Source of the DNA: an uncultured Leptospiraceae bacterium
GTDB taxonomy: Bacteria; Spirochaetota; UBA4802; UB4802
Direction of reading: 5' to 3'
Length of the DNA stretch: 64,000 bases
Assembly: GCA_964629365.1 (NCBI GenBank)
Contig: CAZVRB010000001.1
Coordinates: forward strand, 38,693 to 102,692
This document shows positions 8,250 to 32,814 of the stretch, one piece after another. The first letter of the stretch is position 1. Each line of letters starts with the position of its first letter. The notes under the pieces were generated by a model. It was not told the origin of the DNA and did not search any database. It was given only the letters and a program-made list of their open reading frames with translations. The position numbers were made by a program, and so were the translations under genes.

Positions 8250-10355
8250 TCACGCACTTTGCTTAGACAGCAATGCTGTTGCCACTATATTCACCTGTAT
8301 GTCAGGTACAATTTCATTATATGAGAACACTACCGGCTCAGGAACTTCCCTTTCCAGCAATGTAAAGGTGACACTGCGTATCTGTGGAGACACCAGGTAC
8401 ACCGGTAGGAATCCCGTGTTTCGCGCTTCGGTGTATGCTTCAAGCAAAGACTTCAAGACCCTCGAATGAGTATCCGGATCAAGACCTACTACCCGTCCCT
8501 CGATTGGATCATCATGTATAGAGTTTCTAATCACGTTCTCAATCTCTGGATCAACAGTAATGACCGACAGAACCTTGTCAGAATCCACGTATTCACGGCA
8601 TATCTGCCTGGCCAGCGAAACTCGTACATATTCAGTCAATAATCCAATATCCTTCGTATATTCCGCGTAACTTGCCAATGTCTCCATAATGGTTACCATG
8701 TTGCGAATCGATACCCGTTCACGAAGCAGTGACTGCAGCACCTTTTGCACCTCGCCAAGTGTCATCTTTTTCTCACCGATCAATTCGTTCACTACTGCCG
8801 GATAATCATTCTTTATATTATCAATAAGCTGCTGTACTTCCTGTCTACCCAGTATTTCATCGGCATGTCTCTTTATAAGTTCAGTCAGGTGTGTTGCGAT
8901 AATAGTAGGACAATCAACAACTGTATATCCTTTTCTCTCTGCCATGTCACGGGTTTCAGTATCAATCCATATGGCCTTCAGGTTGAAAACAGGCTCAATG
9001 AATTCCTGGCCTTCTATCTTTTCTTCAACAGTACCCGGATCCATTGCCATAAGGTTGCCCACCTGCAGGGTTCCCCGTCCCACCTCTACGCCTTTTATCA
9101 ACAGTGAATATTCCTGCGGCCCCAGTTCCATGTTATCACGTATACGAATTGGGGGGACAATGAGGCCCATCTCAAGGGCACTTCTTCTCCTGATATTGGT
9201 TATCCTCTCAAGGAGTGTTCCCCCCTGATCAGGATCAGCAAGGGGGATCAGGCTGTACCCGATTTCAAGCTCCAGTGGATCCACCTGTATCAATGGCAGC
9301 ACAGATTCAGGCTTATGCTCACGCAGTGACGCTTCTTTCTCTTCCATGCGTGATTTTTCTTCTTCCTCTTCTTTCGTCTGCATCAGCACGTATCCCAGCG
9401 CGGCCAGTGAAATGGATATAAGCAGAACTGAAATCTTGGGAAATCCCGGGATAAGTACCGAGGCTCCCAGTGCTCCCGCGGTGAGAAAAAGCGCCCTGGG
9501 TTGTGAACCAAGCTGATTGGACAGGTCGGTACCGAGATTATCATCTGAAACTGCCCGTGTAACTATAATACCTGTTGCCGTTGTTATCAAAAGCGAGGGG
9601 ATCTGGGCCACAAGGCCATCACCAATACTTAAGAGGGTATAGGTTTCAAGTGCACCCTGGAAACTTTCTCCCCGCATTACCATTCCTACAATAAAACCAC
9701 CGATAATATTTATAATGGTGATAACGATGCCAACTTTTACATCACCCTGAACAAACTTTGACGCACCATCCATGGCCCCGTAAAAATCCGATTCCTTTCG
9801 AACTTCCTTTCTCTGTTTTAATCCTTCTTCTTCTGTAAGAATACCGTTTGAAAGATCAGAGTCTATACTCATCAGCTTCGCGGGCATTGCATCCAGGGTA
9901 AACCGGGCTGCGACTTCAGCGGTTCTTGTTGCACCCTTGGTGATAACGATAAACTGAACTGCAACAAGTATAATAAATATTATAAAACCAACAACGCAAT
10001 TCCCCCCTACTACAAACTCCCCGAAAGTACGAACAATCTTTCCATCAAAAGCAGACCCTTCCAGCAGAATCAGCCTTGTCGAGGATACGTTCAGGGCAAG
10101 CCTGAATACGGTGGTAACAAGCAATAACGACGGAAATACGGAAAAATCAAATGACCTGGCAACAAACATTACCACCAGGAGTGTAAGAATACCAATCATT
10201 ACACTGAGGGCCATGAGGAAGTCCAGGAGAAACGTAGGCAATGGTATTATCAGCATGGTAACCACTGCGATAACACCAAGCCCCATCAATACATCGGACT
10301 TCTGCATCCATTGCAGATCTTGTGAAAGATTGGATCTCATTTTCCCTTCTGCCAT
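8250..10355 (-). CDS. flhA: Flagellar export apparatus protein FlhA
   Basis: 701 aa. N-terminal polytopic membrane domain and large cytoplasmic domain with the characteristic FlhA sequence throughout. Confidence 0.9.
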   Translation of the reverse strand: MAEGKMRSNLSQDLQWMQKSDVLMGLGVIAVVTMLIIPLPTFLLDFLMALSVMIGILTLLVVMFVARSFDFSVFPSLLLVTTVFRLALNVSSTRLILLEGSAFDGKIVRTFGEFVVGGNCVVGFIIFIILVAVQFIVITKGATRTAEVAARFTLDAMPAKLMSIDSDLSNGILTEEEGLKQRKEVRKESDFYGAMDGASKFVQGDVKVGIVITIINIIGGFIVGMVMRGESFQGALETYTLLSIGDGLVAQIPSLLITTATGIIVTRAVSDDNLGTDLSNQLGSQPRALFLTAGALGASVLIPGFPKISVLLISISLAALGYVLMQTKEEEEEKSRMEEKEASLREHKPESVLPLIQVDPLELEIGYSLIPLADPDQGGTLLERITNIRRRSALEMGLIVPPIRIRDNMELGPQEYSLLIKGVEVGRGTLQVGNLMAMDPGTVEEKIEGQEFIEPVFNLKAIWIDTETRDMAERKGYTVVDCPTIIATHLTELIKRHADEILGRQEVQQLIDNIKNDYPAVVNELIGEKKMTLGEVQKVLQSLLRERVSIRNMVTIMETLASYAEYTKDIGLLTEYVRVSLARQICREYVDSDKVLSVITVDPEIENVIRNSIHDDPIEGRVVGLDPDTHSRVLKSLLEAYTEARNTGFLPVYLVSPQIRSVTFTLLEREVPEPVVFSYNEIVPDIQVNIVATALLSKQSA

Positions 10356-10378
10356 AACCTATAACCCCTGTCTCAACC

Positions 10379-11596
10379 TCATATGGCTTCCTTGAAACCC
10401 TGTTTTTTATACAGCTCAGCGTACACAAGGGAAACAGCGTAAAAAAGGTCTTCTGGTATCATGTCACCGATATCCAGCCTGTTATACATCTCCCTTGCAA
10501 GGTACCTGTTTTCAATCAGCATAATTTCATTCTCTTTGGCAATTTCCCGGATTCGAAGGGCAATGCTGTCGGCTCCCTTGGCGATAATTACCGGTGCATC
10601 CATGGCGGTCCTGTCATACTTGAGAGCTACCGCGTAATGAGTAGGGTTTGTAACGACTACGTCTGCCTTTGGCACTTCCTGGATCATGTTTTTCATTACC
10701 AGCTCACGCTGCATTTCCTGGAGCCTGGCTTTTACCTGCGGATCACCAAGGGTTTCTTTCATCTCCTCTTTTGTTTCCTGCTTTGTCATTTTTAATGACT
10801 CAATAAATTCCTGTTTCTGAAAATAATAATCAGGTATGGACAGCACCAGCAGAAGAACAGCCGACCATATTATTATTTTTAATCCGGTAATGGATACCGC
10901 CTTCAAGGCCATGCTGATGCCGATGTCCGGTGAATTGATAATTACTTCATAATCACTTGAAATAACGAGATAACATACAATCCCTATGGCCAGCACCTTG
11001 AACAATGACTTGAACAGGTTCATGGCAACCTGTTTTGAGAAAAGTACCTTTTTCATGATTGTGGCCGGATCAAACTTTATCTTTGAAAAGTCAAGTTTCA
11101 GCGGGTGGGATGAAAACTGGAAACCGACCTGAATCACGTTCCCTACGAATGCCGCCACGAAAGCGGTTACAAAAATCGGCAATAATATTTTACCCGATTC
11201 ACTTGCAACCGCTATAAATTCATTGAATATACTCTGCTTTGTAAGCGTAAAATTCGAGAAAGATGAAAGGTAGAAAATTGTCATTTTTATTATAGTCTCA
11301 AGTATCCAGCCTCCCAGGAAAAAAATTACCATGAACCCGAATATAACCGTAATTGCCTGCGTGAGTTCATCGGTCTTGGCTGTTTGTCCTTTCTCACGGG
11401 CTTCCCTGAGCTTTTTCTCTGTTGGTTCCTCAGTTCGGCCTTCCTCTTCTGCGGAAAAGAGCTGCAGGTCAAAGTTCAGGCCTTTTGGAAGCCGGGATTC
11501 GGGATACTCCAGCATTATGTCGTATTCAAAGATATTCAAATCCCCTTCTCCAGGTGAAGACACACATCCCTTATTCACAGTATTTATACAGGCCAT
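10379..11596 (-). CDS. flhB: Flagellar export apparatus protein FlhB (start probably internal to listed ORF)
   Basis: Contains NPTH autocleavage motif (VVVTNPTHYAVAL) and typical FlhB N-terminus (EEPTEKKLREAREKGQ). The first ~25 listed residues are probably upstream of the real start. Confidence 0.85.
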   Translation of the reverse strand: MACINTVNKGCVSSPGEGDLNIFEYDIMLEYPESRLPKGLNFDLQLFSAEEEGRTEEPTEKKLREAREKGQTAKTDELTQAITVIFGFMVIFFLGGWILETIIKMTIFYLSSFSNFTLTKQSIFNEFIAVASESGKILLPIFVTAFVAAFVGNVIQVGFQFSSHPLKLDFSKIKFDPATIMKKVLFSKQVAMNLFKSLFKVLAIGIVCYLVISSDYEVIINSPDIGISMALKAVSITGLKIIIWSAVLLLVLSIPDYYFQKQEFIESLKMTKQETKEEMKETLGDPQVKARLQEMQRELVMKNMIQEVPKADVVVTNPTHYAVALKYDRTAMDAPVIIAKGADSIALRIREIAKENEIMLIENRYLAREMYNRLDIGDMIPEDLFYAVSLVYAELYKKQGFKEAI

Positions 11597-12378
11597 TGAT
11601 GCACCACTGTACTTATAAATTTAAATGTTCTCTCAATTGACACGTTCATAATTCTTACCACCAGGGGTGTAACCATGATCAGCATCCCAAAGGCTACTGC
11701 GATCTTAAAAGGAAACCCCAGCATCATAATGTTCATCTGCGGAGCTGCTTTTGCCAGGATACCAAGACTGATGGTAATCAGAAAGATAATGGCTACCACT
11801 GGTAGTGCAATTTTTAACGCTATTACAAACATACCGCTAAAGGCATACATCAGGAATTTCAAAAATCCTTCAGACGAAGTCCCTTTAAGAGAGAAAGCGG
11901 GAGCAAGCTCATAGGAGCGATAGATTGCCTGGATCAGTACATGATGTCCGTTCATTGCCAGAAAAAGCAAAAGAGCGATCAGGTTTTTAAACTGTCCTAT
12001 CAATGGTATGGAAACCTGTGCCAGCGGATCAATAACCTCGTTAATACCAAAACCTATCTGCACCGAAAAAAACTGTCCTGCCAGCTGAAATGCCGAAAAT
12101 ATAACCGCTACAAGGAATCCAATAAATAAACCAATAATAATCTCCTGTGTAACCATAACGGCAAATAAACCCATATTAGTTGTGGGTTCATACCCCATCG
12201 ATGACACGATAGGAAACATAACAAGTGTCAAAAGAAACGCCACAATACCCTTCATTCTCAAAGGGATAACCCCGCTTGAAAAAAACGGGGCCACTATGAA
12301 CATGGCTGCCATGCGCACCATGATAAGAAAAAATATCTGGAACTGTAGAACAAAATACTGCATGTTATCCGGCACCAA
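11584..12378 (-). CDS. fliR: Flagellar export apparatus protein FliR
   Basis: 264-aa polytopic membrane protein in the conserved fliP-fliQ-fliR-flhB position. Confidence 0.8.
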   Translation of the reverse strand: MVPDNMQYFVLQFQIFFLIMVRMAAMFIVAPFFSSGVIPLRMKGIVAFLLTLVMFPIVSSMGYEPTTNMGLFAVMVTQEIIIGLFIGFLVAVIFSAFQLAGQFFSVQIGFGINEVIDPLAQVSIPLIGQFKNLIALLLFLAMNGHHVLIQAIYRSYELAPAFSLKGTSSEGFLKFLMYAFSGMFVIALKIALPVVAIIFLITISLGILAKAAPQMNIMMLGFPFKIAVAFGMLIMVTPLVVRIMNVSIERTFKFISTVVHQWPV

Positions 12379-18978: not shown

Positions 18979-20799
18979 TTACTTTCGTTTACGCAGGTTA
19001 TACTGCTTACTTCTTGAATCTTTCTGCATCATCTGGTAAGACTCCGAAGCCGCGTTCAGATCCTGTTCCTCTGAGGCCCTTTCCAGCCGTGACTGGTATT
19101 CAACTATATTAAGCACCTGTCGTTTCATCTCCCGTGATTTGTACTGTGAAAGTCCATCACGAACCACCTCGAGGTTTTCCTGGATTTTCGCCTTCGCGTC
19201 ATCAACCCTGCCCTTATCAACCAGGTCCATTGTTTCTTCCATCATGGAAGATGATACGAACATCTTGACGTCCTTCATAACCAGTGGATTCATATTGCGG
19301 GACACCAGTTTACTGTCAGCCGTTGATACAACATTCACCTTTTTACTTGAGCTTATCCTGCCTTCACCCTTTACCGTTTCATCATAGGTATATACCACCG
19401 TTGCAAGCACACCGGTGCTGATAGACTGCCTGGAAGGTATAAGTGCAAGCAGGGCCAGTTTTTTTTCTTCTGAGACCACGTCACCCATTTTAATGACTAC
19501 TCCATCATCTGTATCACTTGCCGTGTATCCGTATACCTTTTCAACCCGTGTACCATGTTCGGGTCGTATCTCAATACTGCAATTCTGTGCCACCACTGCC
19601 AGAAGCCCCTCCAGTTCATTGGAGAAAATTTCGGGAATCTTATCCGCCCTGTCAATGTAGTAATAAAAGGCGCTGCCGTACTCGGCAATACCGGTCATCA
19701 ACTTCTCGTTGAAATACTGCCCAACGCCGAATGTTGATATGGTAATGCCTTCTCCGGATCTCTGCCTGGCAAGCTGCTGTATCTGGCGGGGGTCGGTTAC
19801 CCCCACGTTGGCCAGCCCGTCAGATATCAGCAATACCCTGTTGACCTGGTTGCTTTTTAGTTTTTTCTTTACCTGGTTGCAGCCCTCCAGCATGCCACCG
19901 CTCAGGTTTGTTCCCCCTCCCGGTTCTATGGCATCAATAATTTTGTATATTTTATTCTTATCTGACACAACTTCCGGCTCAAGTGCCACGTCAACAACGT
20001 CATCATAGGTTACGATGGACAAGATGTCAGCTGACTCAAGGTTGCGCACAAGAAATTTCATGGCATCCCTGGCATAGTCCAGTTTTCCTCTGTCAGACAT
20101 GGAGCCGCTTCGATCGAGCACCACAGATATATTCAGCGGCAGTCTCTTCTCTGGACGTTCAGCTTTCCCCGCGAGAAACCCTGTTCTTACGTAAAAACTT
20201 CCGCTGTTGCTTTTGCTGATATACCTGTTCTGCGTCTGCAGCTCCAGCGTTACCAGCCCGGTATTCACTACGGGCCTGTCAGGTTCCACGTCACCGGAAA
20301 AATCTACGTAACTGCCGGTCAACGATTTCACCATCCTTCCGGATATGATATCCACCGCGTCAATGACACCGTCAACATCAGGGCTTCGCTGTTTATCGGC
20401 TGCCATGATCTTTCCGGAATTTACATCGATGAGGCGCACATCAATCCGCAGGTTCTCCCCCGTCCTGGCCACCGAACCGGTAAGCAGCTGCTTCGCTGCC
20501 AGCAGTTTGCCTATTTCGTTGGCATCACCCTCGGTCACCCCCGCGGCGGTGAGTCCTTTCTCTTCCAGTATTTTTTTCACCCGCTCACGCTCAAGCACCA
20601 CCATTTTGCCGCTCTGGGCCAGGTTGGTGGCTATCAGCTCGGGTACCGCAACGCTCAGGTAGGAGAGCGCGGAATCGCCGGTAACGTCCTTAAAGTCAAG
20701 TACCGCGATGGTATATTTTGACTGGGTGTGCCCATTATGGGTATGCACAAAGCTGACAACGGCAAGAAACATCACAGCAAATAATAATGCCCGTTTCAT
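18979..20799 (-). CDS. Secreted protein with CsgG-like N-terminal domain and von Willebrand factor A (VWA) domain
   Basis: 606 aa. Signal peptide. N-terminal YTIAVLDFKDVTGD...VVLERERVKKILEEKGL pattern is like the CsgG/LpoB-type fold. Central VWA domain with MIDAS (DRSGSM...TNLSGG...ISDG). C-terminal coiled coil. Confidence 0.6.
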   Translation of the reverse strand: MKRALLFAVMFLAVVSFVHTHNGHTQSKYTIAVLDFKDVTGDSALSYLSVAVPELIATNLAQSGKMVVLERERVKKILEEKGLTAAGVTEGDANEIGKLLAAKQLLTGSVARTGENLRIDVRLIDVNSGKIMAADKQRSPDVDGVIDAVDIISGRMVKSLTGSYVDFSGDVEPDRPVVNTGLVTLELQTQNRYISKSNSGSFYVRTGFLAGKAERPEKRLPLNISVVLDRSGSMSDRGKLDYARDAMKFLVRNLESADILSIVTYDDVVDVALEPEVVSDKNKIYKIIDAIEPGGGTNLSGGMLEGCNQVKKKLKSNQVNRVLLISDGLANVGVTDPRQIQQLARQRSGEGITISTFGVGQYFNEKLMTGIAEYGSAFYYYIDRADKIPEIFSNELEGLLAVVAQNCSIEIRPEHGTRVEKVYGYTASDTDDGVVIKMGDVVSEEKKLALLALIPSRQSISTGVLATVVYTYDETVKGEGRISSSKKVNVVSTADSKLVSRNMNPLVMKDVKMFVSSSMMEETMDLVDKGRVDDAKAKIQENLEVVRDGLSQYKSREMKRQVLNIVEYQSRLERASEEQDLNAASESYQMMQKDSRSKQYNLRKRK

Positions 20800-21031
20800 A
20801 TCCGCCCCCGGTTCGTGTATGAAGATTTTTGAATGTATTAAATATAGTCCTGTTTATTGGACAGGACAAACACTATTTTGTTCCGGAAATTTTTTAATTC
20901 TTTCTCTTTTAAGTGGTTAAAAGATTACCGCAAAGGGGGAATATTATTTATTTCTTCACGAATCTCTGCGCCCTTTGCGCCTTTGCGGTGAAAGCTAACA
21001 CCCCCACAAGTCCAGCCCCTGATTCACATAC

Positions 21032-23947
21032 TTAACGCATCAAACCCCGCGACTGCCTGCCTTCGGCCGCCCCCTCATACATGCCGGCAACACCGAAGTA
21101 GACCTGCGTTTCCCCGTACCGGTCAAAGCCGTGGGCAACACCCGCGAAACCGCTTATGTCATAGCCAAAGCCCAGGGTGATGCGTGTATGCAGTTCACCT
21201 CCCACGGAGGTTCTGAAATCAGCAAGGCCGCTGCTGCCTTTCCACACGTTGCCGTATTCCACGAATGGGACCGCCCAGACATCACGCAGCATCACCGGCA
21301 GTGTGCCGTATCCCAGGTCAAGCTGCAGCAGGGGCAGGCGGTATTCCAGGGCACCAACCACAAGCCTGTCCCCGTAGAACATGTCCGCCGCGTATCCCCG
21401 CATACCGAAGCGGTCCTCGCCGGTTTCCGCGGCGCCGGTCTTCCCCTTCTCGAACCGTCCCAGGTTGTAGGGGTCAAGGTAGCCAGGATTGTTGAACGAA
21501 GCCCCTCCCCGTCCCCGCAGCATGATGACGTTGTTGCGCCATATACCCGGAAGGTACCATGCAAGTTCACCCCGCACCTTCCCGTAATTCACGTCCGACC
21601 CCACACTGTCTGTATACCAGTCACCGATAACCATGAGCGTAACCCCGTCCTCCTGGCTTACCGAGTAGGAATACGAGGTAGCGCTGCTGAAGGAGTATCC
21701 CCCGTGAAAACCTGCCAGCACGTCCCGGTATTCGAAAACCCCCGCACCGCTGTAGTAGATGTCAGTCCAGGTCACCTCCCGGCTGTATGACAGGCTTAGC
21801 AGGTGCTGGTTGTAGAACTGCACGTACGGGATTGATATCCCTGCTTCAATGTTTCGTTCAAGTTCTCGTTTCAGGTTCTCTGAATGTTCTTCCTCCCACG
21901 GAAAGGTGTCCTCCCCGTAGAAAAGGGAGTTGTCACTGTAGAGTACCGTTATATCAGGATAGAGCCCGGCATAGGTATACTGCAGGGACACGTCCGCCCG
22001 CTTCTGCGCTACCGACGCTGCCCCGTACACCGTGTAGAAATGCCGGTAGAGGGTGTCCGCCCCCATGGTATAGAACCCGTACCAGCTGTCATAGCCGTCG
22101 GGGTATATTTCCTCCGAGTAAAGCACCGGCAGCCAGGCGGGGTTCACCAGCGAGTACAGGGGATTGTATCCGCCGGACCTGCCGCCGAACCTGTCCTGGT
22201 CATCGTATAACGCGGCTGTTCTGAAATACCCGTCGGCCGGTTCTGATGGTATTGTTCCCACCACTTCACCGTCGGCCGGTTGGGGAATTATGCCCACGTT
22301 GAACCCGTCCTTACCGTATGAAGCAACGGCGATACGTGACCCGTCCGGGGACACGTCCGGCCAGAACACCCCGCCAATTACGCTGGTGAGCTTTTTCACC
22401 TGCCCGGAGTTCAGATCAATATTGTAAAGATTGTACACCCCGTCACGGTCAGACACAAAAACCACCTTCCAGGCATCCGGGTACCAGTCAGCATGCATGC
22501 AGCTGTACGTCCCCCCTGTCAGCTGGCGTATGGTGTTATTCTGCATAGTATAAAGGAAGATATGACTGTATCCATTTGCGTCCCTGGCCGAGAACACTAT
22601 ACTCTTCCCGCCGGGAGATACCCTCACCCCCGAGATCTGCAGGGGCGTTTTCTCAATGAGCACCCGCGAAACCGAGTAGTCCTTTTCAAGCACCAGCAGG
22701 CTGTAGCGGTCGTCCTCAATCCGCACGCATGCCATTGTGCCGTCTGGGAAAGGGTCTACAGACTGGACCCGCAGGCCGCAGGTTTTGCGGTCATAGCCGT
22801 GGTCATAGGTGAACACGTCGTTATACATGAAGTAGGTTTTATAGTATTCCAGGTCGGCCAGCAGCACCCTGTCTTCACCCGTCACGCTGAGCCATGAGGG
22901 CATGTGTATGCTGGCAAGCTTCTCTTTTTCACCCGTATTCAGCGAAACGCGCATCAGTGCGGGAATATTGTAATTGGTCATCCTGGTGTAGTAGAGACTT
23001 TGTCCATCACTGCTGAAGCGGGGCATGGTGGTGAAATACCCGCTATGGGTCAGCACCCTGGGCTCCGTCACCCCCTTCTCCCTGATCTGGTCTGCCTGCC
23101 TGGTGTAACGCCGCACCGCCTCCTGCTGCCACTGCTCCCACAGGGCATAAAACGACCTGCCGTACACGTCACGGGCGTTTTTCTGCACCAGCCAGGGAAG
23201 CACGTTGTCGGCGTTCTCCCTGAACACCTCTTCGAACCGTCCATCCTTCTGGGTCTCCTGCAGGTAGTCCACGAAAAGTCCCCCGTACAGGTAGGGCACC
23301 ATCCCCGAAGGCCATTCCCTGGGGAAATACGAGGCCAGGTTTATTGATTTCAGGGAGTTCTCTTCAATTTCAGTCCGCATCACCATGTCAGTATAATTGC
23401 TGTTCACCCTCCCGTATGGATACTCAAGGGATTCACGGTATACCGGGTACCCTTCAAGATTCCACATGGGAAGGAACATGTTGGGGAAACACACCCGGCC
23501 CAGGGTATATCTTGTGGCTTCGGGAATACCGTCAATAATATCAAGGTTGAACACGTGGCTGTACTCGTGAATGAACACCAGCTCCATCCAGTCATCATAA
23601 TTACCAATAGAACTGTCAGCTTCGGGGCGGACGATAAAAAGCTGCACCCGGTTATAAGGCACCGGTATGGTAAACCCGTTGGGCTGATCGGTGTTGTCAA
23701 CCAGCACCACGTCGGTTCGCCAGTACGGCTCCCACCCTGTGGCCTGCACCAGCTGCCGGTGCACCTTCTCTGCGATGGGTACAAGCCGCCGTGCATGGTC
23801 TTCAAGCCCCTGGTGATAGTGTATCCAGAAATGCTCTGTCCTGATAGACTTCCAGTCAAGTTCAGGATGGAACATGAATGCCGCATCACCAATGCAGGGT
23901 ATAATTAATATTATAAGGAAGAATATAGAATGCAGAATCTTTTTCAT
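21032..23947 (-). CDS. Large secreted protein: HEXXH motif region, TolB-like PD40 beta-propeller repeats, and C-terminal Omp85/BamA-like beta-barrel-like domain
   Basis: 971 aa. Signal peptide. IHEYSH (HEXXH) near residue 130. PD40-like repeats (FSSDGQSLYY, VSPGGKSIVFS, VSPDGSRIAVASY). C-terminal ~350 aa is Y/G/S-rich with alternating amphipathic pattern and an RGY...G...ALEYRLPL segment resembling the Omp85 barrel signature. High GC. Confidence 0.5.
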   Translation of the reverse strand: MKKILHSIFFLIILIIPCIGDAAFMFHPELDWKSIRTEHFWIHYHQGLEDHARRLVPIAEKVHRQLVQATGWEPYWRTDVVLVDNTDQPNGFTIPVPYNRVQLFIVRPEADSSIGNYDDWMELVFIHEYSHVFNLDIIDGIPEATRYTLGRVCFPNMFLPMWNLEGYPVYRESLEYPYGRVNSNYTDMVMRTEIEENSLKSINLASYFPREWPSGMVPYLYGGLFVDYLQETQKDGRFEEVFRENADNVLPWLVQKNARDVYGRSFYALWEQWQQEAVRRYTRQADQIREKGVTEPRVLTHSGYFTTMPRFSSDGQSLYYTRMTNYNIPALMRVSLNTGEKEKLASIHMPSWLSVTGEDRVLLADLEYYKTYFMYNDVFTYDHGYDRKTCGLRVQSVDPFPDGTMACVRIEDDRYSLLVLEKDYSVSRVLIEKTPLQISGVRVSPGGKSIVFSARDANGYSHIFLYTMQNNTIRQLTGGTYSCMHADWYPDAWKVVFVSDRDGVYNLYNIDLNSGQVKKLTSVIGGVFWPDVSPDGSRIAVASYGKDGFNVGIIPQPADGEVVGTIPSEPADGYFRTAALYDDQDRFGGRSGGYNPLYSLVNPAWLPVLYSEEIYPDGYDSWYGFYTMGADTLYRHFYTVYGAASVAQKRADVSLQYTYAGLYPDITVLYSDNSLFYGEDTFPWEEEHSENLKRELERNIEAGISIPYVQFYNQHLLSLSYSREVTWTDIYYSGAGVFEYRDVLAGFHGGYSFSSATSYSYSVSQEDGVTLMVIGDWYTDSVGSDVNYGKVRGELAWYLPGIWRNNVIMLRGRGGASFNNPGYLDPYNLGRFEKGKTGAAETGEDRFGMRGYAADMFYGDRLVVGALEYRLPLLQLDLGYGTLPVMLRDVWAVPFVEYGNVWKGSSGLADFRTSVGGELHTRITLGFGYDISGFAGVAHGFDRYGETQVYFGVAGMYEGAAEGRQSRGLMR

Positions 23948-24029
23948 AACTTCACCACAAATTTTTTGGTATACTTATAAATTCGCATCATAGTAACATG
24001 CTGCTCAACGGGCCCCCTACATCCCCCCG

Positions 24030-26135
24030 TCACTTCACCCCCAGCCTGTCAGTAAGGATCAGCCGTCCCCACTGCGCCGCCAGGTGACCATTCCCCTTCC
24101 GTAGAATCACAATAATCCCCTTCTCATCCTTTCCACCCAGAAACATGCCGTATCCGAGGGGGAGGTTGGTACCGTCGATTACGGTTGAAGTTTTCCCCCA
24201 CAGGCCTGCATCAACAGGCTGCTGCTGCATGTCCCTGGTCAACCCAACGGGGTCCTTCCAGTTACACTCCGGCCCTGCAGGATGTATCGGCAGCGCCGCG
24301 GTACCTTCGGTGAAGGTGGCGGCAAGTGCCCTCCGTATCCTCACAAGACCTTCCCCGTCAATCTCTTCACGAAGCCGGTTCACCCCGTCATTACTGGTAG
24401 ACACCCCGCTCACCAGCATGGCAATTTTCACCAGGTCACCCACCCGCATGCTCACCTGGAAATCAAGCCCGGCGCATCGTTTTGACCACTCAGCCCTGCC
24501 ATTTACCGCCGAGAATGCATGCAGAAGCCCAAGCCTCTGGCACAACGTCGCGTAAAAACTGTTAAAATCATTAAACGAAATCTCACCCGCAAGTGAAGCA
24601 AAATACATGTTGCACGAATGTGACAGTGCAGGGAACAGGCTCATCCTCCCATGCCCTTCCGGTTTCCAGCAGCCGTCGCTTAGAATGGATTGGGCATCTC
24701 CCCGTGACCCGCAGGTAAAATGATATCCATCCACAAGGTCGGGCCGATGGCTCACAAGGTACAGCCCCATGATGATCTTCCACAATGATCCCGGCGGCAC
24801 CACCCGCTCTGCCATGGCCGGATGGCTCTGCCCCGTTACCTGCCCGCTGCGCATATCAAATGTCATATAGGACAGGTTGGGCGACCCCGCCATTTCCCCT
24901 TCTACCGCTTTCAGGGAAAGTTCCCTGTAATAATGTGTGAGTATCTCGTAACGCGAATAACCCATCGCAGCCAACGCAAGCGCCCCGTGCTGGCACAGGC
25001 CTACGTTATGCCCAAGCCCCCTGCCGCTAAAACGCAAAGCGGGGCCGTCATCCCTGTTCACCATCTCAAGGCGGTAATTATTGCTCTTAAGAAAATTCCA
25101 GCCCATTACCCGGTTAATCTTCAGCCTGAAAGTTTCCGGCGCCAGGGTCAACGAGCCCGAATCCCCTTTCATCATAACAACCGGCACCCCCGAATCATAT
25201 TCAACAGCAGGGGGGGGACGTGAAAGCTTCTCATCATCCAGGATGTCCCGCACCTGTACCGGTGAAAGCATTCGTGTCCACCCGTTATCACCTGCATGAC
25301 AGAGCACCATTCCTGTTCTGTAAAGAATATCCTTCACCGGCGGGAAACCTCTCTCCTCCGCTCCAAACACACCCATGTCCATGGTATGCCCCCCGCAACG
25401 AGAATGAAAGAGCAGGTGGCCGGCCAGGTTCTGGTGATCTATATACCATCTATCATCGTGCAGGAGGGATGGCTTCCCCGTCCTCCCCCTGTAGACCTGG
25501 CAATGGGTAAGGTCGCAGAACCGGTAAGGATGTCCGGGGTGATTATCCTGTATGTACCGGCACCGGGCCAGGATCACGTGGGCAAGGGCTGCCAACGCTT
25601 CACGGTGTATGGCAGGCCTGTTGCCGTATTCGGCACGGGCACTGTCAGATGCATATCGCGTTGGGTCTTCATAAACCACGGTAACAGGATCTTCATTCTT
25701 ATCAAGGGACAGGTATAGCGGAAGGGGATAGGTTCGCTTTACACCTGCCAGGTTCAGGGCAAAGGACTGCCCACCGGGCGGGGCTTCGATTTCGCATTCA
25801 ACCGGCAGGCCAACCGGCACATCATCCATGGTCACATGCCAGCCACGGTGAAAGCTCAGCTGCAGCCGCTGCACAGGAATGTTACTGCCTGCCCCCTCCC
25901 CGTACAGCCTGGTTCCAGCTGGGAAGGTGCACACGATCTGCCCCCTGCCCTCTTCGCGCATTTGGCGAAAGTGCTTCGAGAGCACCTGTATACCCACCCT
26001 TTCTTCGCCGGCAAAAAGCATTGCCGGCGAAAGAACACACAGCAGAAGAAGTATCCGGGTAATGCTGCTGGTATTATTCCTTCCTGTCAATTTCGATGGA
26101 ACCCGGCGGCGCCCATCCCTGTATGGTTGGTTCAT
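24030..26135 (-). CDS. Fusion protein: SpoIID/LytB domain plus penicillin-binding transpeptidase-like domain
   Basis: 701 aa. Signal peptide. CDLTHCQVYRG and GRGLGHNVGLCQHGALALA motifs are SpoIID/LytB hallmarks. C-terminal half has SXXK (PPGSLWK), SXN (SHSCN) and KTG-like (GKTST) motifs. The listed ATG start overlaps the A2M stop by 62 nt (an in-frame TTG would give a 17-nt overlap). Confidence 0.6.
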   Translation of the reverse strand: MNQPYRDGRRRVPSKLTGRNNTSSITRILLLLCVLSPAMLFAGEERVGIQVLSKHFRQMREEGRGQIVCTFPAGTRLYGEGAGSNIPVQRLQLSFHRGWHVTMDDVPVGLPVECEIEAPPGGQSFALNLAGVKRTYPLPLYLSLDKNEDPVTVVYEDPTRYASDSARAEYGNRPAIHREALAALAHVILARCRYIQDNHPGHPYRFCDLTHCQVYRGRTGKPSLLHDDRWYIDHQNLAGHLLFHSRCGGHTMDMGVFGAEERGFPPVKDILYRTGMVLCHAGDNGWTRMLSPVQVRDILDDEKLSRPPPAVEYDSGVPVVMMKGDSGSLTLAPETFRLKINRVMGWNFLKSNNYRLEMVNRDDGPALRFSGRGLGHNVGLCQHGALALAAMGYSRYEILTHYYRELSLKAVEGEMAGSPNLSYMTFDMRSGQVTGQSHPAMAERVVPPGSLWKIIMGLYLVSHRPDLVDGYHFTCGSRGDAQSILSDGCWKPEGHGRMSLFPALSHSCNMYFASLAGEISFNDFNSFYATLCQRLGLLHAFSAVNGRAEWSKRCAGLDFQVSMRVGDLVKIAMLVSGVSTSNDGVNRLREEIDGEGLVRIRRALAATFTEGTAALPIHPAGPECNWKDPVGLTRDMQQQPVDAGLWGKTSTVIDGTNLPLGYGMFLGGKDEKGIIVILRKGNGHLAAQWGRLILTDRLGVK

Positions 26136-29100
26136 ACATGCACTCCATCCTGGATGGTTTCACACTGAAAGTGCCCGGCAGCTCTGCCCGGATTATATAG
26201 GCAATCTCGTAGTATTTCCCCTTCTGAAGGCTGTTGAAGAAAAACACCATCCTGTTATCCCAGCGTTCGGCATTCACGTACGGCTGATAGCCGTCGTAGG
26301 CGTTTTTATCCACCACCTCGAAACCAGCCGGAAGGTAATCTTCAAGCACCAGGTATTCGAAATCATCACTTGCCACGAACCTCACCTTTACCAGCAGTTC
26401 ATCTCCTATCTTCAATTCTCTCTTATCATCAATATTCTGCGGTACAAGGTACTCGTTATGATGAATGTCCTTCACCCTGGTTACGTATGAGAATGAACGG
26501 GCAATCTGTATTCCATTGGACAGGGCATTCACGCTTCGTTTTTCGGATTTAAAGAGTGACAGCACACCGGCATCTTTGAATTTCAGGGTACCGTTGATCA
26601 CCACCTCGTAACTGAGATCCCTGCCGGCATCCCCCGCGGCTTCCACCGTAAATTCGGGAACCGTTCTTCCCCCTTCAAGGGGCAGTGTCCTGGTAAAGTT
26701 CTTCATGTCAATCTCACCGCTCAGATCATAGGTAAACTCGGTCAGATGCTTTCCGTCAAGGGTGAAGGCTACCTTTCCGCTGGTTTTCGGTGCGGCACCG
26801 ATACTGTCAATATAGTCACCCAGGGCAAATATTACCGTGGCGGTTTCCTTGGTAGAGTTCCATGCGCCACCCTTCCCTCTTTTGGTCAACGAACGCACCG
26901 CCCTTGACACCAGTGAAGTAGTGTCACCCGTTTCAACGAGAGCTGAAAGCACGTGTGCAGTAATCTCAGCACGTCCTCCCGGCCATCCCCATTGCTGGGT
27001 TCCCACGCTGGGCCAGTATATCCCCCGTCCGTCAAGTTCCTGTTTCTCTTTTAACGCGGCCAGGAACTCCTTTAAATCCTTTTTGAGATCCTGTTTTCTT
27101 TCATTTTTCAGTTTTTTTATGCCATCAGCCTTTACCAGGGCACGCACAATATATGCCAACTGGTAGGGGTTCATTGCAAGCTTGTCTGTGCAATACTCGT
27201 AGGCCTTTTGGTCCCATTTTCCATGAAGGGCGTACACGTACAGCAGGTAGGCCATCGCGTCATGTGACACCTGCCGGTATTTCAGCATCCTGGCAACGGC
27301 AGATACACCCTTATCGATAGCATTTTTACTTATGGCATACCCGTTCTTCTGCGCCAGCATAAAACCACTCAGAACGTAACCGGTTACAAAACCATTACCC
27401 CGGTCGCCATACCACCATCCCCACGAACCGTCACTGTTCTGCAGCTGCTGCAGCCGTGATATCCCCGAATCAACCTTGGCATGCAGTTCCTTTGTGGATT
27501 TCTCTGAAAGCAATGCCCCGTACCCCTGCCCCTGGGCAAGCCTGTACACCGCCATTGCCGGCAGAAACCTGTTTATGGTCTGCTCAATACAGCCATAGGG
27601 ATATTGCATAAGAAATTCTGTGGCCCGAAGCATCTGTATTACCGGTGAAGGGTTCACCTGTATGGTAACCGACTCGGGTACGAAATCAAAATCAGTGCTG
27701 TCTTTCAACGGCTGTATAACAATTTTGCTGTTATTTGCCATGTCTCCCGTTCCGTACAGCTTGTAGCGCACCCCCCGCCGCTCTACGGGCACATGCAGGC
27801 GCAGTGCGTCGCTGGCTGAGGCGTCCGCAATTGCGGTATATTCCATGGTGAGCTTTTGTGTATCATCCGGAATAATGGTTGTATAATATTCCCTGGAAGA
27901 CCCGAATCCAGGCAGGCTGATCTTCACCGGGTTATCGGCCACAGCCTTCTTCCCGTTGATCTTCATGGTGGTGGTAACCTCTTTCAAACCCCGTTTAGTA
28001 TTGCTGTTGACAATACCGATGATACCCATGGTATCACCTTCAACGGCAAACCGCGGTCGTCCGATTCGGGCGATCAGGTCTTGTGTTACCTGGAATTCTG
28101 ATTTATCTTCTCCAACCCGTCCCTCACGATCATGCCCCCTGGCGGTAAGCCTCCAGACGGTAAGGTTGTCGGGTAACGTGAAGGTGACCGAAGCCTTTCC
28201 GGCGGCATCGGTTCGTATCTTTCCCTTCCAGAAGGCAGTATCTTCAAACTTCTCCCTGATCTTTACCTTCCCCTCTTTTGCGGCACCGGCAAGAATGTGT
28301 ATGGGATAGGAGTAGCTTGTCAACACCCAGTTTGATATCTTTGTATAGAAGAAATTTTGCATTTTCGGCGTGTGATCGGGCCGGATCTGGTATATAGCCT
28401 CGTCAACAGCGGCAAGGGACAGGTCGGCTTCAAGGGGGTTCCCTTTCTTATCTGTTACCTTGATATGTACCGTTGCCTTTTCTCCAGGTTTGTATACCTT
28501 TTTATCATTTTTCATCTCGATGGAAAGACCGGTTTCTGCAACCGGAAGTTCAATATCAACCCTGCTGGTATACAGGGCCCGTTTTCTCTGCATGGTTGCG
28601 GTAAGGTAAAAGTTTGGTGCGTATGCAGGTTTCACATCAAATGTTACCGGTGTGATATTCCCTTTCATTTGTACCACCTTTGAGTGATACACGTCACGCC
28701 CCTCAAGTGTCAGGCACACGTAGGAGTCGGTGAACCTGCTTTTCACCAGGCAGGTGATCTTACCGGGTTCCTTCAAGCTTGTCTTGTCTACCGTAAGTTC
28801 AAGGTTCTTCAACTTTGACTTTATCTCTCCACCCTGCCTGCTGTATATCCAGATGATCCTGTTGGCGTTGATCTTGTTGTTATAACGGTCGGTACTTTCG
28901 GCAACCAGGTCAAACTCGCCGTAGTATGAAAACTTTTTGGGCAGTTCTACTGTCGCCCGGCCTTTTTTGTCAGTAGTGATCTTCTTTGAAAACAGCGGAC
29001 GCTTTTCATGCACATATACACGCTGCAGGGGTTTCCACACGTAGCGGTAAAGATCCAGGTTTACCCCGGCACGCATGGGATCACCCGTATGGGACAGGGT

Positions 29101-31465: not shown

Positions 31466-32095
31466 TTACGGTTCTGCCCTGAGGGTAACACACCTGAACG
31501 CGAACAGCTGCACAACATCGTATGGCGAAAGTATCTTTTTCAAATACTCTATGCTTTTAATTTCGGAGGGGACAATGACAAGAATGCTGCCATCCCCGCA
31601 ATGAGCCTTTATACCAAAACGGCTTATATCAAGAGTTTCAAGTGAAGCAACCGGGTACAGACCTGATGCCACTGTCAGTATAATACTGCTTTTCTCAAAC
31701 TCATGGGCCTCCAGCGGCCTGTGCCGATTGTCCCGTGTCAATGCCCCTTTTAAATAATCACCCAGAACACTTTCAGCGTTACCAGTTGCATGATGAAAGG
31801 CGCCGTAACAGCCCCTAACCCTGCCATTATATACCAGTGTAATAAAAAGCCCGAACCTGCCATAAAAATCAGGAAGTGTGCACAAAAAATGTACATTACC
31901 ATCTTGACCCTGCAGGTGTCCGGCACCCTTTTGCCTGAGCCAGTGAAACAAACATTTCTCTTCTGTTGACCCCCTGATTATACTCCAGCTTTCCAGGTCG
32001 TCACCTGGCTGCGACATCACCGGGAGGCATACAATAACAATTGTCACCACCATTAGGGTAACAACAATCAATACCTGTGCTACGGTTCGTATCAT
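31466..32095 (-). CDS. Membrane-anchored AMMECR1-like domain protein (tentative)
   Basis: 209 aa. N-terminal TM helix. GLFITLVYNGRVRGCYGAF resembles the AMMECR1 LRGCIG core motif. Confidence 0.35.
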   Translation of the reverse strand: MIRTVAQVLIVVTLMVVTIVIVCLPVMSQPGDDLESWSIIRGSTEEKCLFHWLRQKGAGHLQGQDGNVHFLCTLPDFYGRFGLFITLVYNGRVRGCYGAFHHATGNAESVLGDYLKGALTRDNRHRPLEAHEFEKSSIILTVASGLYPVASLETLDISRFGIKAHCGDGSILVIVPSEIKSIEYLKKILSPYDVVQLFAFRCVTLRAEP

Positions 32096-32814
32096 CGCAA
32101 TCGAACCGGCGGATAGTAATCCTTGTACATGAGAAAGGACTCAATAACTTTACCGTTTTTCATCTTGTTTCTATACACATATACCGACATGCCGGGGCGT
32201 ATCCCGTCATCTGAATCAAGAGGAAGGGGCACATCCTCTTCTTCTGTCACCAGCTCGTATGTATGTTTCAGGGGTTGGGCAGCCCGTATAGTAATTGCAA
32301 GGCTGCTGTTATTCATCACTGCGCTGATATATAGTGGCTGGTCATGGGGATTCCTGATGCGCAGATCCTTCTTCCCGTACTTGATTGTGGCATCCAGGCC
32401 CAGGGGTACATAGGTGACCGGCTGATAATGCCTGTGACGCTCCACGATGGCACACCCTGCCATAAGCATGGCATTAAAAAGTGTTGATGAGACCTGGCAT
32501 AATCCTCCACCCGGCTCAAGGACAACCTCGTCCCTGTATAATACGTTCCCATTGGCGAACCCGTTGGCCGCAGAGCCTTCGCCAACAATTCCATTAAACG
32601 AGAGCACCGATCCCGCTTGCAGCACAAAGCCCTCAAGCCTGTCACAGGCTATTGCAATATTTTTTTTCACTTCCGGGGTCTGGTCTTTCACTGACGTGGA
32701 GAAGTTTGCCACTACCTGCAATCCAGGCATGGTATACCCTGGCAGGCAAAGACATCCGGCCAGGATAATTGATGGAATTATTCTTCTTTTCTTCATTATA
32801 TATACCATGCGCAA
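32092..32814 (-). CDS. VanW-like protein
   Basis: 240 aa with signal peptide and a VanW-family core (LEPGGGLCQVSSTLFNA). Stop overlaps the downstream gene by 4 nt. Confidence 0.65.
   Translation of the reverse strand: MRMVYIMKKRRIIPSIILAGCLCLPGYTMPGLQVVANFSTSVKDQTPEVKKNIAIACDRLEGFVLQAGSVLSFNGIVGEGSAANGFANGNVLYRDEVVLEPGGGLCQVSSTLFNAMLMAGCAIVERHRHYQPVTYVPLGLDATIKYGKKDLRIRNPHDQPLYISAVMNNSSLAITIRAAQPLKHTYELVTEEEDVPLPLDSDDGIRPGMSVYVYRNKMKNGKVIESFLMYKDYYPPVRLR

Follow-up and report, generated by a model that had tools for sequence, protein, structure and literature searches.

A SpoIID–transpeptidase fusion encoded behind a thioester A2M gene in uncultured Spirochaetota: a probable peptidoglycan-remodelling protein

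Why should a protein that looks able both to cut and to cross-link the cell wall be encoded directly behind an alpha-2-macroglobulin (A2M) gene? The question is raised by a stretch of 64 000 nucleotides (nt) from an uncultured Leptospiraceae bacterium (contig CAZVRB010000001.1; the whole stretch is called the window below), in which an A2M gene is followed by a gene for a fusion of a SpoIID-like domain with the transpeptidase (TPase) domain of a penicillin-binding protein (PBP). Two types of A2M operon are recognized, type I with pbpC and type II, the mag operon (PMC5764988). That an A2M is teamed with a wall-repair enzyme has been proposed for twenty years, the only evidence being that the A2M gene adjoins pbpC; what the partners in type II operons do is obscure. 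The present locus is a third arrangement, in which a thioester A2M is accompanied by a catalytically intact-looking SpoIID–TPase fusion, a VanW LD-transpeptidase and an exported AMMECR1-like protein. Its sequence makes it probable that the fusion is an exported two-enzyme protein of peptidoglycan remodelling, encoded by the last gene of an A2M operon conserved in Spirochaetota, and the local form of a TPase plus SpoIID module that occurs across phyla.

The open reading frame (ORF) is intact, with 701 open codons, a stop at the end and no frameshift (Table 1). An earlier reading of the sequence alone, the original prediction, had listed SpoIID and PBP motifs in a single secreted polypeptide, and every one of them is present: CDLTHCQVYRG at residues 207-217 and GLGHNVGLCQHGA (which includes GLCQHGALALA) at 373-385, followed in the transpeptidase half by GSLWK (449-453), SHSCN (505-509) and GKTST (647-651). 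A pseudogene or a frameshifted gene is ruled out by the intact ORF together with a ratio of non-synonymous to synonymous substitution (dN/dS) of 0.2.

Profiles, a structural model and invariant motifs agree that SpoIID and PBP-transpeptidase domains are joined in one protein. The window protein matches NCBIfam models of both kinds (SpoIID_LytB, E 1e-15; pbp2_mrdA, E 2.5e-8; also spoVD), and PF00905 is precomputed for most of its homologues. A family profile of 73 sequences, compared with the Protein Data Bank (PDB), finds the SpoIID structures 5i1t and 4rwr (E ~1e-10; 9e-11 best) and has as its best matches the Zn-binding class B PBPs of Clostridioides difficile, 7rd0 (E 4e-14) and 7rcz (SpoVD), then PBP2/MrdA. 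The AlphaFold2 (AF2) model built from the same 73-sequence alignment (mean pLDDT 88.8, pTM 0.90) consists of a helix at residues 23-40, a beta-rich domain at 47-156, a SpoIID-like domain and an alpha/beta transpeptidase domain, which begins ~10 residues past the end of the SpoIID domain. Foldseek comparison of this model with the PDB places C. difficile SpoIID (5i1t) at the top, then SpoVD, PBP3, PBP2 and other class B PBPs, with a probability of 1.0. The sole strongly hydrophobic 19-mer of the protein lies within residues 23-43, and the fusion is predicted to be exported, either anchored by its signal or periplasmic.

The original prediction had allowed that the C-terminal half might fit a fold other than that of a PBP, such as a beta-lactamase-like esterase. 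When the C-terminal 289 residues are searched alone against the PDB, PBP2-type matches are the only ones returned (including 8yjx and MrdA), in agreement with the profile and with Foldseek. An esterase, a class D beta-lactamase and a BlaR-like fold were all rejected, since only class B PBPs match. These results bear also on the suggestion that the domain is directed at beta-lactams, as a class-D-like beta-lactamase or a BlaR-like sensor or decoy. With ~280 amino acids (aa) and no pedestal the domain does resemble the OXA enzymes and the BlaR sensor domains, which have the PF00905 fold; yet neither sequence nor fold comparison returns any class D beta-lactamase or BlaR, the matches being PBP2, PBP3, SpoVD and MrdA only. 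The SCN motif, moreover, contains the Cys of Zn-binding PBPs and is not SxV, a glycan-binding enzyme is fused to the domain and an LD-transpeptidase is encoded nearby. A module of this kind is highly improbable.

The residues on which activity would depend are conserved throughout the family. In alignments of 33 and of 73 members, the latter spanning homologues at 33-93% identity, the invariant positions are E169, C207, D208, L209, C212, Y215, G217, G375 and H376 in the SpoIID half and G449, S450, K453, C489, H495, S507, C508, N509, G647, K648, T649 and T651 in the TPase half; C475 and H211 are kept in at least 90% of the 73 sequences. The original prediction had proposed the serine of SXXK and the catalytic glutamate of SpoIID as the positions to be checked, and both (S450 and E169) are invariant in the 73 sequences.

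Comparison with known enzymes assigns these residues in more detail. E169 corresponds to the catalytic E101 of C. difficile SpoIID in the alignment with 5i1t (E88 is the B. subtilis counterpart), pairs with the Glu of AEM/AEL of canonical SpoIIDs in three independent alignments and sits ~8-10 residues ahead of the EAL motif, as in C. difficile SpoIID. C207, H211 and C212 correspond to the C. difficile Zn ligands C140, H145 and C146, with identical C-x4-H-C spacing, and the upstream His of the Zn cluster (H134 in C. difficile) has moved one position in this clade, to H202. The Zn-binding motif of PBPs comprises two Asp/Cys residues, an invariant His and a Cys at the X of SXN (PMC9334274); in the fusion the putative ligands are C475, C489, H495 and C508, which align with the YxCxG...CW..GHG...SCN of 7rd0. 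The residue after K648-T649 is Ser in the window protein and Ser, Ala or Gly in the family (mostly Ser or Ala); split relatives, described below, have KTGT.

Two absences bear on what the TPase half would do. No N-terminal pedestal (PBP dimerization) domain is found next to it in the Pfam results or the AF2 model, and no GT51 transglycosylase family is among the Pfam or NCBIfam matches of the fusion. The TPase domain could equally be a DD-carboxypeptidase or an endopeptidase. The protein would then be purely lytic or trimming, preparing tetrapeptides and opened meshes for VanW, and this we regard as possible, though doubtful. It is favoured by the missing pedestal or membrane anchor, through which SEDS partners activate class B PBPs, by an operon that contains no glycosyltransferase, by the exchange of the Gly of KTG for Ser or Ala and by a fusion partner that is itself lytic; LD-transpeptidases, according to PMC13344953, require tetrapeptide donors made by carboxypeptidases. 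Both sequence and fold, however, group the domain with class B transpeptidases (PBP2, SpoVD) and not with the low-molecular-weight carboxypeptidases, a grouping to be read with the proviso that motifs cannot separate transfer from hydrolysis.

How unusual is such a fusion? Among 5.8 billion proteins searched, ~76 are homologous to the window protein over the full length (33-93% identity); those that are named come almost entirely from metagenome-assembled genomes (MAGs) of Spirochaetota, and single-domain SpoIID proteins rank lower in the same list. A HMMER scan of 1.84 billion cluster representatives returned 59 proteins at E<=1e-30, of which ~48 are full-length (600-720 aa) with the same architecture. 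The family is small (~50, counted as clusters at 50% identity) and is seen only in Spirochaetota MAGs.

The next tier of the HMMER scan consists of proteins of 670-860 aa with the domains in the reverse order, PF00905 then PF08486, and hhalign comparison of the two fusion types over the N-terminal domain and SpoIID gives a probability of 100 (E 6e-48). The two halves are also encoded separately. In a neighbourhood census of 80 loci from GTDB species representatives, the Spirochaetota-type fusion occurs in 12 loci and a gene for a ~300-aa TPase followed immediately by one for a ~390-aa SpoIID in 16, all of the latter outside Spirochaetota, their phyla including Acidobacteriota, WOR-3, Elusimicrobiota, Pseudomonadota, 'Deltaproteobacteria' and Cloacimonadota. 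The split genes keep canonical SxxK, SCN, KTGT, CW..GHG, CDLTHCQ and GHGVGLCQ, and the N-terminal beta domain of the fusion is common, by alignment, to the stand-alone ~390-aa SpoIIDs of the split pairs and to the reverse-fused SpoIIDs. Because the pair occurs as separate genes and as fusions in either order, a Rosetta-stone pattern, TPase and SpoIID would be expected to have a joint function. That the fusion is a read-through artefact of two neighbouring genes is rejected, since the split pairs run in the opposite order to the domains of the fusion. The description of the architecture as unusual thus holds for this domain order, which is rare and confined to Spirochaetota; it does not hold for the pair, which is widespread as adjacent genes and reverse-order fusions and of which one example, YfaQ of E. 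coli, had already been described.

In E. coli K-12 (L086, 3149-4798, minus strand), yfaQ, a 'tandem DUF2300' gene, comes directly after the type II A2M gene yfaS. The profile of the fusion family matches YfaQ residues 36-157 with a probability of 92.5 (E 5e-7), covering GSLWK, YxCxG and SCG; the Pfam SpoIID model matches residues 312-374 at 27 bits, which is over its cut-off, and the reverse-fusion profile finds the region of the SpoIID Glu in YfaQ with a probability of 96.8. The score of YfaQ for DUF2300 (PF10062) is 303 bits, and this family has no Pfam match on the window fusion. Judged by these profiles, YfaQ is a degenerate remote homologue of the fusion. It has been described from structure prediction as a transpeptidase-like N-terminal half joined to a SpoIID-like C-terminal half and is reported to have a Sec signal; deletion of yfaQ gives a phenotype of the envelope type, with wider cells and phenotypic links to mepS, mepK and nlpI mutants (bioRxiv 10.1101/2025.02.11.637708). 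The same study makes no mention of A2M or yfaS. MagE of P. aeruginosa holds the corresponding position, after magD, and by synteny may be the equivalent of YfaQ.

The original prediction took the fusion to be a partner of the A2M and suggested that neighbours be counted, and the count upholds the partnership. Ten of the 12 fusion loci from GTDB have a thioester A2M (45-56% identical to the window A2M) encoded directly before the fusion and in the same orientation, as do all 8 further independent contigs, which makes 18 of 20 distinct loci, L083 being the same contig as L012. The other two, L003 and L004 (~10000-12100), have no A2M, VanW or AMMECR1-like gene within 10 kb and may be relocated copies or paralogues. 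The A2M of the window has three N-terminal CarboxypepD_reg domains, then MG2, A2M_BRD, A2M, TED and bMG10 (Pfam); its thioester motif is CIEQ at residues 1282-1285 (27580-27591) and its lipobox LVITGC.

The conserved Spirochaetota unit is VanW, AMMECR1-like, A2M and fusion, in that order, and the genes beyond it are unrelated. The VanW gene overlaps the AMMECR1-like gene by 4 nt in the window and is conserved in most of the loci whose sequence extends that far. VanW domains were recently identified as LD-transpeptidases (PMC11348318), and they are reportedly rare in bacteria other than Gram-positives. The AMMECR1-like gene is kept directly upstream of the A2M gene in Spirochaetota loci and is found also beside split pairs in L013 and L023; its product gave one weak AMMECR1-type match (1zq7, E 0.005) among PDB sequences. 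A promoter and terminator scan gave counts no higher than in shuffled controls, so the limits of the operon are not informed by it.

The association with A2M extends to the split pairs. Of the 16 split-pair loci, 7 have a thioester A2M within 10 kb, against one among the 52 SpoIID-only loci (Fisher p 8e-5), several of the negatives being truncated by contig ends. One pseudomonadotal locus (L013) has the order A2M-VanW-orf-TPase-SpoIID-AMMECR1 with 4-nt overlaps. In L025 (1138-2190, 6781-7506) and L051 (4570-5286) thioester A2Ms are flanked by genes for DUF1175 (NlpC/P60-like) and DUF2135, families represented by yfaT and yfaP in the type II operon of E. coli, whose A2M has no thioester; these two operons blend features of both recognized types. 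The TPase plus SpoIID module appears, from these sequences, to travel with A2M genes as split pairs, as reverse-order fusions and, in degenerate form, as YfaQ/DUF2300 in the type II operon of E. coli.

With these counts in hand it is scarcely credible that the fusion is a housekeeping enzyme of growth encoded beside A2M by chance, or that the ORF stems from faulty assembly or annotation or is that of a pseudogene; both ideas are largely refuted. They can draw on the two family loci without A2M and on the use of MAG data throughout. Set against them, many MAGs of independent studies have the same four genes in the same order between unrelated flanks, the A2M association recurs in other phyla with the significance just given, the ORF is unbroken and shows purifying selection, and its domain order is opposite to that of the split genes.

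That the ORF begins inside the end of the A2M gene had been taken by the original prediction as a sign of translational coupling and stoichiometric co-production. The overlap is real in the window. An ATG at 26135, with GGAG 7 nt upstream, makes it 62 nt long, and the same start was picked by gene callers in the close relatives L081, L084 and L085; the region read in two frames is 97% identical in nt to L081, and divergence jumps right after it. The alternative start, a TTG at 26090 that would leave an overlap of 17 nt, matches in position the ATG of P0072 in L083. Because the window sequence has no standard start codon between the A2M stop and the hydrophobic core of the fusion, some overlap would be needed for a signal peptide in this lineage.

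The overlap is not kept across the family. The spacing between A2M and fusion is -62, -17, +2, +28, +101 or +137 nt and ~280-300 nt elsewhere, and in L082 a gene for a 71-aa LapA-domain protein separates the two. Translational coupling is plausible locally, in the window lineage, and is rejected as a conserved feature of the family on account of this variable spacing; nor can stoichiometric co-production be sustained, since the overlap is lineage-specific and by itself carries no information on stoichiometry. The intervening gene of L082 (9729-9944) codes for a small membrane protein, and gaps of similar size (~280-300 nt) in L001, L002, L005 and L011 may hold the same LapA-domain gene.

The closest relatives reveal a further peculiarity of the fusion gene. 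The window and contig L081 are 92-97% identical in nt over ~22 kb, except in this gene: between window 24030-26073 and L081 10063-12103 the identity falls to 56-75%, without gaps, and the 5' breakpoint lies directly after the A2M stop. The synonymous rate (dS) between the two is 1.29 for the fusion gene and 0.18 for the A2M gene, and the non-synonymous rate (dN) 0.26 and 0.012, respectively, giving the fusion a dN/dS of 0.20. The fusion alleles of L084 and L085 are 94 and 85% identical to that of the window and their A2M genes 92-95%. Because synonymous sites are saturated in the fusion gene, the L081 divergence points to allelic replacement and not to fast evolution, and rapid positive selection is rejected. 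As read from these rates, the gene is one in which a deeply divergent but functional allele has replaced another, and its exchange is thereby shown not to depend on the A2M gene.

Several observations tell against an active two-enzyme partner of the A2M and are collected here. The window protein misses curated cut-offs (Pfam SpoIID, PF08486, 17.1 bits vs 23; TIGR02669, 58.4 vs 83.3) and has no Pfam match to PF00905 at E<=0.01. Replacement of the Gly of KTG by Ser or Ala is atypical for active PBPs, and the canonical LKAQ of SpoIID is altered to LAAL. Characterized SpoIIDs act on glycan strands first denuded by an amidase, and the fusion operon contains no amidase gene. Two of the 20 loci lack an A2M nearby, all family members come from uncultured MAGs, and the swap of the fusion gene without a change of A2M, in a genome otherwise 95% identical, argues against tight co-adaptation of the two. 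Lastly, the motifs of YfaQ are degenerate: it keeps GSLWK and has SCG for SCN, KTW for KTG and neither CDLTHCQ nor GHGVGLCQ. Given this degeneracy, some members of the superfamily may have a role other than catalysis.

Such a role could be imagined for the fusion itself, as a scaffold or peptidoglycan-binding adaptor of an A2M complex which, like the accessory Mag proteins that stabilize MagD, would use its folds for binding only. The type II A2M forms a complex with proteins of its own operon (PMC5764988), and both the state of YfaQ and the deviating KTG and LKAQ motifs of the fusion would suit this role. On the other side stand the Ser nucleophile, the general-base Lys, the SxN, the KT and the SpoIID Glu, invariant in 73 sequences down to 33% identity, the dN/dS of 0.2, and the split and reverse-fused relatives with fully canonical motifs. 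Catalysis is favoured because the invariant active-site pattern is hard to explain otherwise, and a purely structural part for the fusion is quite unlikely.

For an enzymatically active fusion, the following course of events can be proposed. When the envelope is breached, the A2M would capture the proteases that enter, and the sacculus would meanwhile be remodelled by the wall enzymes. Glycan strands would be bound and cut by the SpoIID domain, and the PBP domain would form an acyl-enzyme with pentapeptide stems and then either make 4-3 cross-links or trim the stems to tetrapeptides. The tetrapeptides would feed LD-transpeptidases such as VanW, giving 3-3 cross-links. There is a precedent for such a repair set in E. 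coli, which survives defects of outer-membrane assembly with an LD-transpeptidase, a DD-carboxypeptidase and a synthase. Because the fusion has no glycosyltransferase domain, remodelling of existing peptidoglycan is preferred to synthesis in the manner of PBP1c, and it can reasonably be inferred, as the original prediction had it, that the protein serves repair rather than such synthesis; the more specific 'cut-and-crosslink repair' we likewise infer. The enzymatic activities, the role in stress repair and any physical coupling to the A2M belong to the proposal; what the comparisons show are the domain identities, the conserved catalytic and Zn motifs, the kept operon and the relation between fused and split forms.

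A bolder proposal is that the pair of TPase fold and SpoIID fold is an ancient and near-universal partner of A2Ms of both types. Together with the A2M, and here with VanW and the AMMECR1-like protein, the pair would form a physically coupled periplasmic machine that responds to breaches by linking protease capture to local cutting and re-cross-linking, and the Spirochaetota fusion would be the active archetype of YfaQ. In this full form the proposal is speculative and rather unlikely to be correct. It does yield a unifying statement that can be tested, namely that both types of A2M operon carry a module of PBP fold and SpoIID fold. The fusion family supplies active-looking proteins for biochemistry and a reason to revisit YfaQ and MagE, and it places Zn-binding PBPs, and SpoIID beyond sporulation, in a domain context that is new. 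The most valuable result is the comparative pattern across phyla, of which the literature searched holds no description; searches for SpoIID, VanW or AMMECR1 together with A2M, and for an A2M neighbourhood with a transpeptidase and a lytic transglycosylase, found no description of this operon.

Table 1. Positions (nt in the window) of the fusion gene, its parts and its neighbours
Feature	Position	Strand	Basis or remark
Whole fusion ORF, SpoIID-like then PBP-transpeptidase domain	24030..26135	-	701 aa + stop
Basic N-terminus and hydrophobic helix, residues 1-43, export signal or membrane anchor	26007..26135	-	Hydrophobicity, AF2
N-terminal beta-rich domain, residues 44-157	25665..26006	-	AF2 strands 47-156
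SpoIID/LytB-like lytic-transglycosylase domain, residues 158-412	24900..25664	-	TIGR02669, PDB profile, Foldseek
SpoIID-domain site E169	25629-25631	-	
SpoIID-domain site HPGHPYRFCDLTHCQVYRG	25485-25541	-	
SpoIID-domain site GLGHNVGLCQHGA	24981-25019	-	
Class-B-type PBP transpeptidase domain without pedestal, residues 421-701	24033..24875	-	NCBIfam, PDB matches
TPase-domain site S450xxK453	24777-24788	-	
TPase-domain site S507-C-N509	24609-24617	-	
TPase-domain site K648-T-S650-T	24183-24194	-	
Two-frame coding region, A2M 3' end and fusion 5' end	26074..26135	-	Direct sequence reading
Type I (thioester) A2M lipoprotein, 1786 aa	26074..31434	-	Pfam, thioester, lipobox
AMMECR1-like protein, 209 aa, N-terminal hydrophobic signal/anchor	31466..32095	-	Pfam AMMECR1 43 bits
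VanW-domain lipoprotein, first gene of conserved set	32092..32796	-	Pfam VanW 143 bits; lipobox ILAGC, GGGLCQ Cys motif
971-aa protein, TolB-like propeller (PD40, DPPIV_N) and Omp85-like C-terminus	21032..23947	-	Pfam, NCBIfam

The gene for the 971-aa protein follows the fusion gene after a gap of 82 nt in which the scan found no terminator, and the two may be co-transcribed. Of the relatives, only the closest (L081, L084 and L085) have it as well. This gene and a neighbouring VWA gene were considered as members of the module and rejected, being restricted to those relatives. The 971-aa gene has a GC content of 55.5% (69% at third codon positions, GC3) against 35-45% in much of the window, and its allele in L085 is unusually divergent, at 73% nt identity versus ~90% in the other relatives. 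The VWA gene (18979-20799, minus strand) codes for a 606-aa protein with a CsgG/FlgO/TolB_N-like N-terminal domain followed by the VWA domain, and has the A2M cluster on one side and genes of the flagellar motor (MptE-like, MotA) on the other. Positions 20000-28000, which span the fusion gene, the 971-aa gene and part of the A2M gene, have a GC content of 50-57%, compared with 35-47% in the rest of the window. Rfam and tRNA scans of the window found nothing.

Among known systems, a parallel in function would be the pair of A2M and PBP1c. PBP1c (pbpC), the classical partner of type I A2Ms, is, like the fusion, a PBP transpeptidase enzyme whose gene adjoins that of a thioester A2M lipoprotein (ECAM/YfhM), and the logic proposed for the type I pair, to 'trap proteases and mend the wall' (PMC5764988), fits the fusion as well. 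The chemistry would differ, PBP1c coupling GT51 strand synthesis to a class A TPase whereas the fusion pairs SpoIID-type strand cleavage with a class-B-like TPase bearing a predicted Zn site.

Each half of the fusion has its own well-studied relatives. With the SpoIIDs of Bacillus and Clostridioides (4rwr, 5i1t) it shares the fold, the catalytic Glu, the Cys/His Zn cluster and the C-terminal GHGxGxxQxGA. Unlike theirs, the host of the fusion is no spore former, and the fusion adds an N-terminal beta domain and a PBP domain, has LAAL for LKAQ and CQ for SQ, and lacks a SpoIIP-type amidase partner nearby. With the Zn-binding class B PBPs (C. difficile PBP3 and SpoVD; A. baumannii PBP2) it has the four-ligand motif in common, 7rd0 and 7rcz being the best matches; it differs from them in lacking a pedestal or adjacent anchor, in having KTS for KTG and in being joined to a lytic enzyme. 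Because no pedestal or anchor domain is present, no interface for a SEDS partner is apparent in the fusion.

The split pairs and the TPase–SpoIID fusions are closer. They are homologous to the Spirochaetota fusion over all domains, with CDLTHCQ, GHGVGLCQ, CW..GHG and SCN in common, and are often encoded beside thioester A2Ms, sometimes with VanW and AMMECR1-like genes. In contrast to it they have the TPase first and a canonical KTGT, and some of their operons contain the Mag-type DUF1175 and DUF2135. YfaQ, too, is an exported protein with a TPase-like and a SpoIID-like part, encoded directly downstream of an A2M gene, but its order is TPase then SpoIID and it has degenerate forms of the motifs that the window protein retains. 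The operons differ likewise, that of YfaQ comprising DUF1175, DUF2138, DUF2135 and a thioester-less A2M, and that of the window VanW, the AMMECR1-like protein and a type I A2M with CIEQ. On these likenesses the fusion is best filed among the A2M-associated proteins of PBP fold and SpoIID fold, of which YfaQ is the sole studied member, as a reversed-order and catalytically intact-looking partner of a type I A2M.

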